A program made the position numbers and the translations under genes. This document shows, in pieces, positions 5,980 to 18,601 of a stretch of DNA of 46,289 nucleotides. Positions within the stretch are counted from its first letter, which is position 1, and each line of letters opens with the position of its first letter. The DNA is from Candidatus Hydrothermales bacterium (GTDB taxonomy: Bacteria > Hydrothermota > Hydrothermia > Hydrothermales > JAJRUZ01), in NCBI GenBank assembly GCA_039630575.1, contig JBCNUW010000016.1:1-46289 (forward strand), read 5' to 3'. A model generated the notes under the pieces. That model made no database searches and was not told where the DNA came from. It saw nothing but the letters and a program-made list of their open reading frames with translations.

Positions 5980-6792
5980 TTATTTTGTTTCAAGGGATTT
6001 CAACCCCTTTGATGGTATAGAAAGCTCAGGGTTTCCCTTATCTAACTGATAAGCCCACTCAAAATACATACTATTATTTAAAATTTTTAAAATTCTTATT
6101 TTAGCAAAATGATTATATCTTGTCCAAAATACATAGATATGTCCTTCAATTGCTTCTAATACTCCCAGTTTAGACCAACCTTCTAAGGGTGCGTAACTTA
6201 TTTCATCAAAGCTATTTGCATAACCCATATCTTGAACAAAAGTAAGGGTATCAGGTACCAATATGTATCCTATTCCATCAGAAGTGTCATACTTAAAATA
6301 AAAATCACAATTTGGTGAGAGATAGGAACATACAGTTTGATGTGCAAAATCAAAACCCGAGAAATTTGGATTTATAAGATAACTAAGAACAATATCTTCA
6401 CCATCAGGTCTTGGAGTATCAAAAACTTCTTCAGGTGAAAGGTCTGATTCGTTGCCAGCAGTATCATAGGCTGAAACAGCATAATAATAAGTTATTCCAT
6501 TTTGAACATTGTAATCTATAAAACTTGTTTTGTTCGGAGGTAAGGATTCAATTTCGTTGTAAGGTCCTTCATATGAGAATCCTCTCCAAACGATATAACC
6601 GGCAAGATCCTTCTCTGTATTTGGGAGCCAGTATAGATAAACTTTTCTATCTCCTGTAACTGAGTAAAGTCCCCGTGGGGGAGCTGGAGGAGTATCATCT
6701 TTTAAAGCAGGACAATAACGTCTAGTAACACACCACCCTAAAATTAGGGAAAGTGTTAACATTATTGTTGCTTTTATTATTTTTCTCTCCAT
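5980..6792 (-). CDS. Putative lipoprotein with a fibronectin type III-like domain
   Basis: Start at ATG 6792 after AAGGAGG; LILGWC lipobox-like; DTPPAPPRGL...VYLYW...DLAGYIVWR...YYYAVSAYDTAGNES. Confidence 0.8.
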   Translation of the reverse strand: MERKIIKATIMLTLSLILGWCVTRRYCPALKDDTPPAPPRGLYSVTGDRKVYLYWLPNTEKDLAGYIVWRGFSYEGPYNEIESLPPNKTSFIDYNVQNGITYYYAVSAYDTAGNESDLSPEEVFDTPRPDGEDIVLSYLINPNFSGFDFAHQTVCSYLSPNCDFYFKYDTSDGIGYILVPDTLTFVQDMGYANSFDEISYAPLEGWSKLGVLEAIEGHIYVFWTRYNHFAKIRILKILNNSMYFEWAYQLDKGNPELSIPSKGLKSLETK

Positions 6793-6899: not shown

Positions 6900-6985
6900 G
6901 CCGGAGTGGCGGAACGGAAGACGCGGCGGACTCAAAATCCGCTCTCCTTCAAGAGGAGGTGAGGGTTCAAATCCCTCCTCCGGCA
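6900..6985 (+). tRNA. tRNA-Leu(CAA), no encoded CCA
   Basis: Acceptor GCCGGAG/CTCCGGC-A, anticodon arm GCGGA-CTCAAAA-TCCGC, long variable arm, T-arm GAGGG-TTCAAAT-CCCTC. Confidence 0.97.
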
Positions 6986-14720: not shown

Positions 14721-16625
14721 TTACTCAGAAACACTAATAACCTTAAATTCTACCCTCCTGTTCATTGCTCTTCCTTCTCTTGTTAAATTATCAGCTATAG
14801 GCATAGTTTCACCATAACCCTTTGCAACAAGCTTTGAAGGATCAATATTATGGAAGTTAATTAGATAATTCCTTACAGCCTCTGCCCTAGCTTGTGAAAG
14901 GGTAAGATTATAGCTATCTGAACCAACAGAATCTGTATGACCTTGAATTTCAACTAATGCCTTTGGATTTGATTTCAAAAATTCTGCAACTCTATCAAGA
15001 ATTGGATAAGATTCAGGTTTTATAGTAGCCTTCCCTGTATCAAAATAAATATTTTGTAATCTTATTGTAACCCCTTTTTCTGCTCTCTTTTTTAACTTTA
15101 TATCTTTTTCAACTAAAGATTCACCTTCTTTAAGAACTACAGGTACACTCTCTGAAATATACCCCTCTGCCTCAATTTTCAAAATGTATGTTCCTGGGGG
15201 TAATTTTAATTTGTACGAACCAGTTTCCGGATCACTTACAGTTCCTTCGAATCCAGTTTCTGGGATGGAAACTTTCGCTAAAAGAGGTTCATCTGTCACA
15301 TTGTCCACTATTTTACCAGTAAGTATTATCAATTCCTTTTTCTTTAAAGGAAAATCAAGAACTAACTCAGCACCTTCCTTAATAATAAAACTCTTTCTCA
15401 TCCAAGAATAACCTTCCTTTTCAACGTATAAACTATAGTTTCCAGGTTCAAGCTCTATTGAGTAAAAACCATACATATCTGAAGAAATAGGTGGTTTATC
15501 TAAACCTTCTATTAAAATTTGAGCCATAAGAGGTTCACCACTATTTGCATCATAGATTTTACCCCTAACTTTTGCAATTTTAGGCTCAGGTGGAGGCGGT
15601 GGCGGTGGTGGAGGAGTAACTGTAACTTTTTTAGGTAAAAGATTATAAACATTTGACATTAAAAAAATAAACCTCCAATCGGGAATATAAGTAAATAAGT
15701 TTCTATCATGTGAAAAAATAAAAATTAGCGAATCAGGAATATTTTTCACTCTTGCATCAACAGCAAAATCAAAAATAATTCCTCCTGGAGTTTTAAACCT
15801 TACTCCGGGAGTTAAAGCTAAAAGATTCGTTCTTAACTCTGTAAAATAAACCCCATGAAAATCTAATATAAAATCTACATAAGACCCCGCAGATAAAGTT
15901 AGATTTAACCCAAAGGGTAATCTTGTAAAGTCCTTAAATTCATCTTTATTTTTAAAAACCGTATCTGTGACTGGGACACCATTTTGATCAAAACTATACC
16001 ACAAAACTGGGAAAACATCATCCTTTGCAGGTCTTCCAGTTTGGTGAAATCCAAACATTCCATTTAAACTTAATATCTGCAATTTAACTCCTAAAAGAAG
16101 ATGAGACCAAAATTGACCACTCTGGGGTATATACGTAGGGAAACCATAAATTGTAAACCTTGGATCCTTCCTTTCGATACCGAGATTAGGAAAATAATAT
16201 CCCAAAGTTACACCTCCAGAAAACTCAATACCAGTCAGAGTATCTGCAAAGAAGTTATATCCTAACTTGGTAAGAATATCTAAACCTCTGTAAGCAAAAT
16301 AACCATCGTCACTCCTTTGGTTTGGAACATCTGCCCTTTCTAACTGCCTTCCCTCAAAATCAGTTCTAAAACCAAACTCTAAGAAATTAAAAGGGGCATA
16401 AGATAATAAAAGTGAAGAAAGTAAATAATGTCTTCTGTCATCCAGAGGATTATTTGCTGAATCGACTGAAATATCCCAATACTTAAAATCTTGAAAAGAA
16501 TATCCACCATATAAAGAAAAAGAAATATCACCCTGCCTGTGTGTCTTAGGATGAATTACTCTAAAAGATCCACTTAAACCATTAATTGATGGAATTGAAA
16601 TTATGAAAAACAAAATTAAACTCAT
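14721..16625 (-). CDS. OmpA-family protein: probable N-terminal beta-barrel, poly-Pro linker, two carboxypeptidase-regulatory-like domains, OmpA_C
   Basis: NIYFDTGKA, IQGHTDSVG, NLTLSQARA, GYGE, NRRVEF; PPPPPPPPP linker; two G-x-I-x-D beta-sandwich units. Confidence 0.9.
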   Translation of the reverse strand: MSLILFFIISIPSINGLSGSFRVIHPKTHRQGDISFSLYGGYSFQDFKYWDISVDSANNPLDDRRHYLLSSLLLSYAPFNFLEFGFRTDFEGRQLERADVPNQRSDDGYFAYRGLDILTKLGYNFFADTLTGIEFSGGVTLGYYFPNLGIERKDPRFTIYGFPTYIPQSGQFWSHLLLGVKLQILSLNGMFGFHQTGRPAKDDVFPVLWYSFDQNGVPVTDTVFKNKDEFKDFTRLPFGLNLTLSAGSYVDFILDFHGVYFTELRTNLLALTPGVRFKTPGGIIFDFAVDARVKNIPDSLIFIFSHDRNLFTYIPDWRFIFLMSNVYNLLPKKVTVTPPPPPPPPPEPKIAKVRGKIYDANSGEPLMAQILIEGLDKPPISSDMYGFYSIELEPGNYSLYVEKEGYSWMRKSFIIKEGAELVLDFPLKKKELIILTGKIVDNVTDEPLLAKVSIPETGFEGTVSDPETGSYKLKLPPGTYILKIEAEGYISESVPVVLKEGESLVEKDIKLKKRAEKGVTIRLQNIYFDTGKATIKPESYPILDRVAEFLKSNPKALVEIQGHTDSVGSDSYNLTLSQARAEAVRNYLINFHNIDPSKLVAKGYGETMPIADNLTREGRAMNRRVEFKVISVSE

Positions 16626-16654
16626 TTTATTTTAAATTAAATCTTAAAGTGAGC

Positions 16655-16729
16655 TGGCCCCAGGGGGATTTGAACCCCCGTCTCCACCTTGAAAGAGTGA
16701 TGTCCTGGGCCTGACTAGACGATGGGGCC
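16655..16729 (-). tRNA. tRNA-Glu(UUC), no encoded CCA
   Basis: GGCCCCA/TGGGGCC-A acceptor, anticodon loop CTTTCAA, T-arm GGGGG-TTCAAAT-CCCCC. Confidence 0.96.
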
Positions 16730-16742
16730 ATAAAACTATAAT

Positions 16743-16772
16743 ATATTAACAAAAAAATTCTAAAAATTTCAA
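16743..16772 (-). promoter_or_regulatory. sigma70-type promoter of tRNA-Glu and ompA
   Basis: TTGAAA-18 nt-TAATAT with TGn extension. Confidence 0.55.
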
Positions 16773-16773
16773 A

Positions 16774-17286
16774 TTAAGGAGTCTTACCCTTTGCAGCAAT
16801 ATAAAGTTTTCTAAACTGCTCGTTGTCAACTATTGCTTGATTTATTAAAAAGTATGTTTCCAGATTTCTATTAGTTTCTCTTATCCTCTCCGCAAGCTCA
16901 CTTGCTAAATTTCTTAAAACAATAACCCCTATTCTCGGATCCTTTTCAACAATTTTCCAGAAATCTTCCCTTTTTAAAACATATAAGGAAGACTCTTTTA
17001 TTGCTGTACAGGTGGCACTTCTTGGCATATCGGAAATAAGTGAAAGTTCACCAAAAAATGAACCATCATCAAGCTCTGCAAGAACAAGAACAAGATCACC
17101 TCTTTTTAACCTCACCTCTACCTTTCCCCTTTCTATAATAAAAAGTGTGTTTCCTGGAGAACCCTCTTCAAAAATTACTTCACCTTTTTCATAATTTCTG
17201 GTTTCAAGATTTTCTAAAATTCTAGATAATTGGTCTTCTTTAAGTCCATTAAAAAGTGTTACATTTTTTAAAATATTTATCATCAC
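16774..17286 (-). CDS. Cyclic nucleotide-binding domain protein without Crp HTH (start GTG 17286 or ATG 17283)
   Basis: GEVIFEEGSPG, FFGELSLI, PRSAT. Confidence 0.9.
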   Translation of the reverse strand: MMINILKNVTLFNGLKEDQLSRILENLETRNYEKGEVIFEEGSPGNTLFIIERGKVEVRLKRGDLVLVLAELDDGSFFGELSLISDMPRSATCTAIKESSLYVLKREDFWKIVEKDPRIGVIVLRNLASELAERIRETNRNLETYFLINQAIVDNEQFRKLYIAAKGKTP

Positions 17287-17296
17287 ATTTATAAAG

Positions 17297-17372
17297 TGGG
17301 CGATGGAGGATTTGAACCTCCGACCTTCACGTTGTCAACGTGATGCTCTCACCAACGCTGAGCTAATCGCCC
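17297..17372 (-). tRNA. tRNA-Val(GAC), no encoded CCA
   Basis: GGGCGAT/ATCGCCC-A acceptor, TCACG-TTGACAA-CGTGA anticodon arm, GGAGG-TTCAAAT-CCTCC. Confidence 0.97.
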
Positions 17373-17381
17373 ACTTTTTTT

Positions 17382-17410
17382 ATTATAACTAAAAAGTTCT
17401 TAAACTTCAA
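17382..17410 (-). promoter_or_regulatory. sigma70-type promoter of tRNA-Val and the cNMP gene
   Basis: TTGAAG-17 nt-TATAAT, 9 nt before the tRNA. Confidence 0.65.
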
Positions 17411-17654
17411 GAAGTTTACTAATCCTTGATTTTATTCTTGAAGCCTTATTATCATGAATAACTCCCCTCTTTACAGCTTTATCAACAATACTCTGTAATT
17501 CCCTAAACAGAGATTTTTTATCCTCTACATTACTTGCTTTTTTTAACTTTTTTATTAAATTTTTAATCTTGAGCTTATAGAGCCTATTTCTTAACCTTCT
17601 TTTTTCATTTTGTCTTTCCCTTTTTAAAACTGAAAGTGATTTTTTTCTACCCAT
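17400..17654 (-). CDS. rpsT: 30S ribosomal protein S20
   Basis: KRERQNEKRRLRN, VDKAVKRGVIHDNKASRIKSR. Confidence 0.95.
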   Translation of the reverse strand: MGRKKSLSVLKRERQNEKRRLRNRLYKLKIKNLIKKLKKASNVEDKKSLFRELQSIVDKAVKRGVIHDNKASRIKSRISKLLEV

Positions 17655-17676
17655 TTAATTTTTTTAGTGTATATGG

Positions 17677-17689
17677 TGGAATAGAACCA
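17677..17689 (-). promoter_or_regulatory. T-arm-like leader motif upstream of rpsT
   Basis: TGG-TTCTATT-CCA; core 12 nt after TATAAT (17706-17701) and 23 nt before ATG; no SD. Confidence 0.55.
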
Positions 17690-17731
17690 TGCAGATTTTT
17701 ATTATAATAAAATTAAACCTTAAAATTAAAA

Positions 17732-18601
17732 ATGCAAATAATATTTTTTATCTTCTCATTTCAAATCGTAATATATGGAAATGAGAGATGGAACTTTGCA
17801 CGAAACGCAAGAATTGCCTCACTTGGTGAAGCCTCTTCATCCCTTATAGATCCAGGATCTTTCTTCTTTAATCCAGCTACACCTTCTCTGTTTGAAAATA
17901 AAGTAATACAAGCTACTTTCTCAAATTACTTCTCTGATGTTTTCAAATTTGGTGCCTTTAACTTTATAACAGGTGACTCAACGAATAAATTCTATGCTTC
18001 TTTTAATTATATTTTTTCCGACAACATTTATTTTACAATATATAAGGATACAACTGAGGCATATGATATAGAAAAGATTGAAAAAAGGGGATTAATTAGA
18101 GTTAGTTCAATTCACCTACTATCTGGTTTTTCAAAAAAATTAAAGAAATTTAATTTTGGTTTTTCGCTAAAAATCATGAGAGAAAATTTACATGTTGGAA
18201 AAGGTTATGGTCTTGGGATGGATGTTGGGATTTTATCAGTAAATAAATTTAACTTTTCCTTTGCTTTAAGAAACTTTTTGGGAAGTATAAACTTATGGGA
18301 TTCAGGAAGAAAAGAATATATTCCAACTTCACTGAGGATCGGTTTTTCAAAAGATTTCATAAAAAAAATCCTTTTCTCTTTTGACGTTGAATCTTATTGG
18401 GAAAAAAATTTCAAAATTTCTTGTTATGCTGGGCTTGAAACAAAAATCTTAAAAGATTTTTTTATAAGAACAGGATGGAGAGAAAATATTCCAACTTTAG
18501 GATTCGGTTTTAAGATAAAAAAATTGGATGTAGATTATGCTCTTGGAGGCAATCTTGAATTACAAGCTTTTCATGTAGTATCTCTTTCTCTTGAACTCTG
18601 A
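17732..18601 (+). CDS. PorV/PorQ-like (UPF0164) outer-membrane beta-barrel protein
   Basis: ARIASLGEA...FFNPA, alternating beta-strands, GLGMDVG, DYA...HVVSL C-terminus. Confidence 0.78.
   Translation: MQIIFFIFSFQIVIYGNERWNFARNARIASLGEASSSLIDPGSFFFNPATPSLFENKVIQATFSNYFSDVFKFGAFNFITGDSTNKFYASFNYIFSDNIYFTIYKDTTEAYDIEKIEKRGLIRVSSIHLLSGFSKKLKKFNFGFSLKIMRENLHVGKGYGLGMDVGILSVNKFNFSFALRNFLGSINLWDSGRKEYIPTSLRIGFSKDFIKKILFSFDVESYWEKNFKISCYAGLETKILKDFFIRTGWRENIPTLGFGFKIKKLDVDYALGGNLELQAFHVVSLSLEL

Follow-up and report, generated by a model that had tools for sequence, protein, structure and literature searches.

Can whole tRNA genes act as the 5' leaders of protein genes? The question is raised by five genes on the minus strand of the window, by which we mean the whole 46,289-nt stretch analysed, contig C8 of a Candidatus Hydrothermales assembly (genome G000; 1.89 Mb, 30% GC, 94.7% complete). 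There rpsT, tRNA-Val, a gene for a cNMP-binding-domain protein, tRNA-Glu and ompA follow one another, and a T-loop motif free of any tRNA lies in the rpsT leader. Throughout, distances d run to the start codon from the final C of the T-loop motif; the gap, counted from the discriminator, equals d − 11. The features are:

17678..17688, minus strand: T-loop motif without a tRNA, in the leader of rpsT and 23 nt from its ATG
17400..17654, minus strand: rpsT, ribosomal protein S20 (PF01649)
17382..17410, minus strand: predicted sigma-70 promoter of tRNA-Val, TTGAAG-17-TATAAT (10/12 consensus match)
17297..17372, minus strand: tRNA-Val(GAC), without encoded CCA, leader of the cNMP-domain gene (Rfam RF00005, ARAGORN)
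17308..17318, minus strand: T-loop of tRNA-Val, 21 nt to the GTG and 24 nt to the ATG
17287..17296, minus strand: AU-rich 10-nt spacer, with no SD, promoter or terminator match
16774..17286, minus strand: cNMP-binding-domain gene, 170 aa from GTG 17286 or 169 aa from ATG 17283 (PF00027)
16735..16772, minus strand: two overlapping predicted promoters of tRNA-Glu (9/12 consensus each)
16655..16729, minus strand: tRNA-Glu(TTC), without encoded CCA, leader of the OmpA-domain gene (RF00005)
16676-16666, minus strand: T-loop of tRNA-Glu, 40 nt to ATG 16625
16626..16654, minus strand: AU-rich, SD-less 29-nt spacer, the longest among SD-less orthologs
14721..16625, minus strand: OmpA-domain outer-membrane protein gene, 634 aa (PF00691, PF13715)
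6900..6985, plus strand: tRNA-Leu(CAA), third tRNA leader in the window, T-loop 28 nt before an SD-led ATG

The gene order, strand and coordinates given in the initial annotation hold. The 3' end of tRNA-Val is 10 nt from GTG 17286 and 13 nt from ATG 17283, with its T-loop 21 or 24 nt from a start that has no Shine–Dalgarno (SD) sequence, and tRNA-Glu ends 29 nt before the SD-less ATG of ompA, with its T-loop 40 nt away. Both tRNAs exceed the RF00005 gathering threshold (71.6 and 61.1 bits), form a cloverleaf (fold z −5.4) and are the sole genes for their anticodons in the assembly; an Rfam search of the window returned tRNAs only. Each does lack an encoded CCA, as the annotation had said, and an encoded CCA appears in just 1 of 45 ARAGORN rows for G000. 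The N-terminus of the cNMP-domain protein is alignable with five orthologs. The gene after tRNA-Leu(CAA) is an SD-led 89-aa ferredoxin.

The annotation also gave each tRNA its own −35/−10 and saw no terminator after either. Promoter-like matches do precede both tRNAs, the −35 of the predicted tRNA-Val promoter overlapping the end of rpsT; promoters in the window are consensus matches only, and the local scan, with 8 promoter-like sites against 5.6 ± 2.7 in shuffles, is weak by itself. The consensus scan found no promoter between tRNA and start codon in either spacer, nor does either contain a −10 element 5–8 nt before AUG, the signature of leaderless genes. No terminator-like site occurs on the minus strand from 16400 to 17900, and genome-wide a hairpin with a U-tract within 60 nt follows 0 of 39 terminal tRNAs, against 11 of 22 in an Ignavibacteria control; leader tRNAs and the remaining tRNAs show no difference in the U-tracts that follow them.

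The free T-loop of the rpsT leader is present in 6 of 6 family genomes with an rpsT match and absent from both sister-family rpsT leaders seen (2), which are plain and AU-rich. More free motifs lie 18–28 nt before starts in the window, at 6005(−), 19186(+), 32573(−), 42129(−) and 43133(−).

Spacing of tRNA genes and protein starts across the genome

The annotation had proposed a genome-wide tally of tRNA-to-CDS distances and SD absence, and the tally shows that the layout extends throughout the genome. Gene starts were taken from a custom ORF caller that applies a codon-usage score to stop-to-stop frames. Among 44 tRNAs of G000 on contigs of at least 3 kb (two on tiny contigs and the tmRNA were left out), 33 are followed by a CDS on the same strand, 5 by a tRNA, 5 by a convergent gene and 1 by nothing called. 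By hand count, the gap is 9–17 nt (d 20–28) in 25 of these 33 pairs, and 24 of the 25 are SD-less, two of the SD-less cases resting on near-cognate starts. Gaps of that size occur in 82 of 307 CDS-to-CDS pairs 0–100 nt apart (p 4e-8; p values throughout are overstated because the genomes are related), and an SD is then present in 42 of 82, as against 1 of 25 after a tRNA (p 1e-5); an SD here means a stretch complementary to the 16S 3' end and lying 4–13 nt ahead of the start codon. Gaps of 0–8 nt, found in 103 of the 307 CDS-to-CDS pairs, do not occur between tRNA and CDS (0/33, p 4e-6). A stricter automatic count gives 19 SD-less gaps of 9–16 nt and one of 29, with SD-led gaps of 17, 24 and 26. 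Most tRNA-led starts are supported by aligned ortholog N-termini; those after tRNA-Arg(TCG), tRNA-Leu(TAG) and tRNA-Val(TAC) have no tRNA-led ortholog in the sample. A −35/−10 match precedes 31 of 41 first tRNAs and 19 of 375 coupled genes. The SD-less, tRNA-led layout is thus confirmed as real, conserved and beyond chance genome-wide.

Extension of the acceptor stem by leader and trailer does not exceed chance in G000 (p 0.15); in G004 (p 0.002) and G012 (p <0.001) the pairing of 5' leaders with discriminator plus trailer does. A tmRNA 3' end lies near position 16388 at the edge of contig C22 of G000, followed by tRNA-Leu(CAG) as in G004 and G005; it differs from the complete tmRNA at G000:C35:4000-4357, and that 5-kb contig may be contamination.

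Start codons after tRNAs are often weak. Eight of 24 tRNA-led, SD-less genes begin with a codon other than AUG (five UUG, one GUG, one CUG, one AUU), against 25 of 219 strong-SD genes (p 0.008) and 10 of 111 leaderless genes (p 0.004); the excess has p 0.046 when the two near-cognate cases are set aside. The CUG start, which recurs in G000, G001 and G004, is in register with UUG, GUG and AUG in orthologs. In four genomes the conserved N-terminus of an FkbM-domain gene that follows tRNA-Gly(CCC) offers neither AUG nor GUG nor UUG, and in three the gene would start at AUU or AUC, d 22–23. Genes behind the free motif mostly begin with AUG (113/121), in a set for which the choice of start favoured AUG. 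Elsewhere, a Memo-family gene after tRNA-Lys(TTT) has GUG at d 22 in G007 (L384), and in G008 (L092) it has no canonical start and AUU at d 23. The UUG-started gene after tRNA-Arg(TCT), from G000:C56:52187 onward, is a putative Cas6-like gene, by a motif match.

Conservation of the layout and of the free T-loop

The organism's own family (f1, six genomes) and its sister family (f2, five) make up the order. All 11 genomes of the order pair tRNA-Val with the cNMP-domain gene, seven of them without an SD at d 21–26 and four with AAGGAG at d 29–32. tRNA-Glu and ompA are also paired in 11 of 11, SD-less at d 25–32 in eight, SD-led at 32 and 40 in two, and SD-less at 40 only in G000, where the pair is an outlier and a weak example. 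In G005 the two pairs lie on separate contigs (L006, L292), each tRNA ahead of its own gene. Both the tRNA and the free T-loop stand further out when an SD is present.

In strict automatic cross-genome tallies, which sample part of the roughly 45 tRNAs that each genome has, SD-less gaps of 9–17 nt per tRNA number 19/44 in G000, 21/43 in G004, 14/47 in G005 and 11/25 in G001 for f1, and 13/32 in G007, 14/32 in G008 and only 3/33 in G006 for f2. In the order, about half of the tRNA genes lead SD-less protein genes at short distance. SD-less short gaps are rare beyond it: at 12 and 13 nt in G012 and at 8 and 14 nt in G033, which also has six SD-led gaps at 16–22 nt. The two control genomes from outside the phylum have no SD-less gap of 9–17 nt (Ignavibacteria G272, 0/33; Patescibacteria G273, 0/30, with three at 18–22 nt). 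The phosphomannomutase gene follows tRNA-Thr(CGT), SD-less at d 21–27, in f1, f2 and G012, and in G033 the same tRNA stands at d 20 ahead of a putative 496-aa frame.

A different spacing is found in genus g14 of the same class (G067, L331-L360), where SD-less gaps are 0–4 nt in 10 of 15 cases and the starts after tRNAs are AUG or UUG. The g14 sample has few SD-led and many leaderless genes, and BLAST gave no matches between the downstream genes there and the tRNA-led genes of f1 and f2. Gaps of 0–4 nt need a cut at the tRNA end; a cutting route therefore exists in the class.

Statistics by initiation class refer to 902 genes of G000 with an unambiguous ATG on contigs of at least 3 kb. The free T-loop occurs 121 times in G000 within 14–40 nt of a start. 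It is SD-less in 85 of the 121, 76 of these at d 17–25 (median 20), and accompanied by an SD in 36, at d 21–39, the SD beginning at +6 to +9 past the motif. The median d for 22 tRNA cases is 23. The two distributions match after a 3-nt shift (KS p 0.45) and differ unshifted (p 4e-4), and they disagree when measured from the tRNA end, an 11-nt shift (KS p 1e-21); the 3-nt shift is the extra length of the tRNA T-stem. The third base pair of the free motif forms in 79 of 121 copies against 41 expected, and it covaries, whereas pairs 4–8 do not exceed chance and no acceptor-like stem surrounds a free motif in G000. Stem extension does not correlate with distance (rho 0.07), and the idea that longer stems push the start outward can be set aside. 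Among the 902 genes the motif is sense in 82 and antisense in 6. No −10 enrichment is seen downstream of it at any offset, and the distance to the nearest −10 is flat. These patterns indicate that the free motif acts at the RNA level and is tied to the start codon, not a −10 element. In 22 of 75 cases the free-motif gene heads a divergent pair with its own promoter, and T-loops are rare ahead of leaderless genes (3/150).

The free motif is limited to f1. Phylum-wide pattern counts at 17–28 nt, used for the free motif only, give 60–131 matches per genome in f1 against 1–20 in 266 other genomes of the phylum, counts that outside the family come close to chance, since every ATG is accepted as a start; among sampled genes outside f1 it was absent from G006 (0/161), G008 (0/161) and G012 (0/162). 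The tRNA-led layout, being wider than the free motif, is probably older.

Comparison of orthologs points to how the two may be connected. In some genomes tRNA-Gly(TCC), tRNA-Ala(CGC) and tRNA-Gly(GCC) each lead the next gene directly, and where the tRNA lies 52–81 nt off that gene has a free T-loop at d 23–33; the gene after tRNA-Phe has no such substitute. In G005, 10 of 13 genes adjacent to a distant tRNA have a free T-loop, against backgrounds of 6/20 and 35/109 (p 0.001); elsewhere the numbers are 1 of 5 in G000 (SD-less) and 2 of 4 in G004. Three close G000 orthologs of G008 tRNA-led genes have lost the tRNA, and these have an SD (two) or coupling (one) and no free T-loop. Some copies appear to be in transition. 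At G005 L131 a second T-arm with a tRNA-Ala 3'-strand remnant, a duplicated 3' end, stands 23 nt before a gene that is directly tRNA-led in G000, G004 and G008 (d 23–25); at G005 L134 a decaying tRNA-Pro retains an intact T-arm at d 22; and at G001 L320 an extra T-loop lies 42 nt from the start, the distance of the tRNA's own loop in G004. The initial annotation's suggestion that the tRNA T-arm is the signal and the origin of the motif gains support, at the level of sequence comparison, from the wider layout, the ortholog swaps and the decaying copies, and the free motif likely derives from tRNA leaders. Of the free motifs, tRNA remnants accompany 2 among 60 sampled in G005 and are not clear at any of 165 in G000, so that most free motifs would be old or have arisen afresh.

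Several other tRNA-like or tRNA-adjacent sites were seen. L125 (G005:C66), which ARAGORN missed, is a copy resembling tRNA-Ala(TGC) whose 3' half is intact. At L084 (G012:C2 near 227839) a tRNA called by ARAGORN next to a tRNA-Asp that it resembles has the anticodon TTA, and is possibly a suppressor or a decayed copy. An rpmG-like gene follows tRNA-Trp (G000:C3:56139 region, L143, L127, L322); the f1 gene has an SD-like purine run that could pair just before the ATG, and f2 has a plain SD-less spacer.

Possible roles of the T-arm

In G000 the leaderless class comprises 147 of the 902 genes, and 169 of 902 have no SD, T-loop, leaderless promoter or overlap. SD-less genes lacking a T-loop have promoter matches 5–8 nt from the start in 52 of 88 cases (0–2 nt leaders) and at 15–24 nt in only 11 of 88 (leaders of about 9–17 nt). 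The anti-SD is canonical in 4 of 4 16S genes of relatives, the 16S gene being unassembled in G000; pairing of the T-loop with an altered anti-SD is ruled out by that canonical sequence and by the lack of any close motif complement in the relatives' 16S.

No protein scored over the TIGR02651 cut-off for RNase Z in 21 genomes, whereas 9 of 14 controls had one. The best matches skip model positions of about 153–200, which we take to be the RNase Z arm (exosite). One armless RNase Z-like protein of 245 aa (G000:C78:10557-11294) occurs in f1 and f8 and was not found in f2; it does not track the layout and was rejected as its determinant. A second, of about 250 aa and with a changed metal motif (G000:C2:20283-21026), is present in 4 of 4 genomes of f1 and f2 and in 0 of 6 others. 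RNase P RNA was found in 5 of 5 genomes, and profile searches recovered a six-domain bS1, PNPase and RNase PH; a search of four genomes of the order turned up no RNase J domain in any of them. TruB (21/21 genomes) and TrmI (19/21) are widespread and single-copy, and offer no clue that T-loop enzymes changed specifically in the family. By motif matches, RNase Y, the CCA enzyme and IF1–3 are presumably also present. Regex motif searches missed several genes later recovered by profile searches, and regex blanks for Rho, RNase E/G, RNase III and TrmFO carry no weight as absences.

The leading interpretation, at something approaching an even chance, is that the T-arm of a precursor not yet cut takes over the task of an SD and places the ribosome at the start codon. 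The tRNA promoter would transcribe tRNA and gene together; a binder borne by the ribosome or associated with it would grip the T-loop, and initiation would take place about 20–27 nt downstream, before the trailer is cut, the tRNA trimmed and CCA added. Weak starts (UUG, GUG, CUG, AUU/AUC) would be tolerated because position sets the start and tRNA promoters are strong. Free T-loops may have been left behind, in one family, by 3' halves of tRNAs that were duplicated or decaying, the signal then spreading to about 120 genes. A more general formulation, which we offer tentatively and somewhat below an even chance, is that this constitutes a fourth bacterial initiation mode, in which the ribosome or a partner would use a T-loop some 20 nt upstream to measure off the start, precisely enough even for SD-less CUG or AUU starts; tRNA genes would have been the first leaders, and one family would have trimmed the signal to an 11-nt loop over about a tenth of its genes. 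Ribosome docking on the T-arm fits best because it is the loop whose distance is constant rather than that of the helix end; because the motif goes with the start codon instead of with a promoter; because many free-motif genes have a promoter of their own and would gain nothing obvious from a cut; and because free 5' ends favour leaders of 0–2 nt over 9–17 nt. Against it stand, most strongly, the g14 gaps with the cut that they require, and further the canonical anti-SD and the dispensability of the T-arm signal, which the 169 genes without any signal and the plain sister-family rpsT leaders demonstrate. The single free T-loop among five distant-tRNA genes of G000, the three tRNA-less orthologs that have none, the missing correlation between stem extension and distance and the scarcity of tRNA remnants also weigh against it. 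In addition, an intact acceptor stem 9–12 nt before the AUG would crowd the ribosome, given its footprint.

The T-arm might instead guide processing, with a nuclease that reads it cutting at or near the tRNA 3' end and freeing a short-leader message, the free T-loop being a minimal cut signal; we consider this rather unlikely. tRNAs that lack both CCA and terminators must have their trailers cut, gaps in g14 are 0–4 nt, the SD begins at +6 to +9 past the free motif as if downstream of a cut, and a ruler nuclease could also yield the 3-nt offset. Two armless RNase Z-like proteins are at hand, a 5'-P message could be stable where no RNase J domain was found, and t-elements and mitochondrial punctuation provide precedent (in the sections cited of PMC4326828 and PMC3790967). 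Yet no RNase Z exceeded the cut-off in any of 21 genomes, and the enzyme faces stacked acceptor and T stems and uses its exosite (PMC3790967), whereas free motifs are unpaired beyond about 3 bp. A cut at the discriminator would permit gaps of 0–4 nt, of which G000 has 0 in 33; short leaders inhibit leaderless initiation, according to the section cited of PMC8459731; and the 22 of 75 free-motif genes that head divergent pairs would gain nothing obvious. Of the annotation's alternative, tRNA 3' cleavage resembling punctuation, the g14 gaps are in favour, and for the family it is weakened by the missing RNase Z, the lack of an acceptor-like stem and the prevalence of 0–2 nt leaders.

An unlikely explanation is that the T-arm plays no part: in compact genomes, genes would profit from the strong promoters of tRNAs, the spacer would be the minimum unstructured length that a ribosome requires next to a folded tRNA, and decay of SD and AUG would damp over-expression. 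Weak start codons fit such damping, SD-independent starts are common here (169/902), low structure and S1 help such starts (PMC5397173, section cited) and a six-domain bS1 is present, and the tRNA-led layout occurs where free motifs do not. Passive riding leaves unexplained the conservation of a free T-loop at the same distance, the free loop where a tRNA has moved off (10 of 13 in G005) and the survival of only the T-arm in decaying tRNA copies; helix ends alone would also allow hairpins at 9 nt, whereas free motifs stop at 17 (KS p 1e-21). It is highly improbable that the T-loop sequence is a DNA element, a −35-like hexamer or B-box-like site belonging to the promoter of a separate transcript. 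TTCAAA resembles the local −35 TTGAAA, the motif is strand-biased, and TATAAT lies inside the spacer in a few relatives. The covarying third base pair, however, points to RNA, and with no −10 enrichment downstream a −35 role is ruled out; a −10 at 17–25 nt would overlap the start codon, and T-loops precede only 3 of 150 leaderless genes.

If the T-arm does start translation, it would be an initiation signal unlike SD-led, leaderless and S1-assisted ones, and its evolutionary source would be visible in genomes, from tRNA gene to decaying copy to bare loop. Should it guide cutting instead, the lineage, in which no RNase Z is recognisable, would have an unknown nuclease for tRNA 3' ends, and bacteria would have mitochondria-like processing. 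Either way the system lends itself to short testable constructs (one tRNA, a 12-nt spacer and a reporter) and accounts for CUG and AUU starts that gene callers miss.

Relation to known systems

Transcripts that join tRNA and mRNA are familiar from the E. coli thrU-tyrU-glyT-thrT-tufB operon, in which tufB has its own SD well downstream. Viral IRESs that mimic tRNA recruit ribosomes; what they imitate is the anticodon arm, and they do not function as tRNA genes. A literature search, with subscription journals and bioRxiv supplements outside its scope, yielded no report of the tRNA-led layout or the free motif. Within the literature searched, neither has been described previously, and the link between them is the new contribution. 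The comparison also drew on sections of PMC10424219.

In mitochondrial tRNA punctuation (Ojala, Montoya, Attardi 1981; via sections of PMC3790967) RNase P and RNase Z cut out abutting tRNAs, RNase Z facing the stacked acceptor and T stems and using its exosite. As in animal and fungal mitochondria, the tRNAs here lack CCA and stand ahead of a protein gene whose message has no SD. Unlike in mitochondria, the gap is 9–17 nt and never 0–8 (0/33), abutting tRNAs being met only in g14; no arm-bearing RNase Z was found, and a stem-less free T-loop can replace the tRNA. t-Elements, known from a Haloferax 5S rRNA leader and plant mitochondrial mRNAs, are similarly reduced tRNA-like elements, descended from tRNA or imitating it, that act in cis ahead of another RNA, but in the sections cited they retain both acceptor and T stems and serve as substrates of tRNase Z (PMC4326828, PMC3790967), whereas the free motif has 2–3 bp and is tied to the start codon. 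An acceptor stem stacked on the T-arm, as in t-elements, is lacking in the free motif and trivially present in whole tRNAs.

Plant dicistronic tRNA-mRNA transcripts (10.1101/2020.04.13.039131) offer another case in which tRNA and protein gene are co-transcribed, as may be the case here; they are eukaryotic and linked to mobility signals, with no fixed start distance in the section cited. With S1-assisted initiation on unstructured leaders and with leaderless initiation (PMC5397173, PMC8459731) the tRNA-led genes share the absence of an SD, an AU-rich spacer and the presence of bS1. Both of those modes do without a conserved hairpin or tRNA placed at fixed distance. Leaderless messages, by the same sections, strongly prefer AUG and have no leader, whereas the tRNA-led genes have 9–16 nt ahead of the start and many weak start codons.
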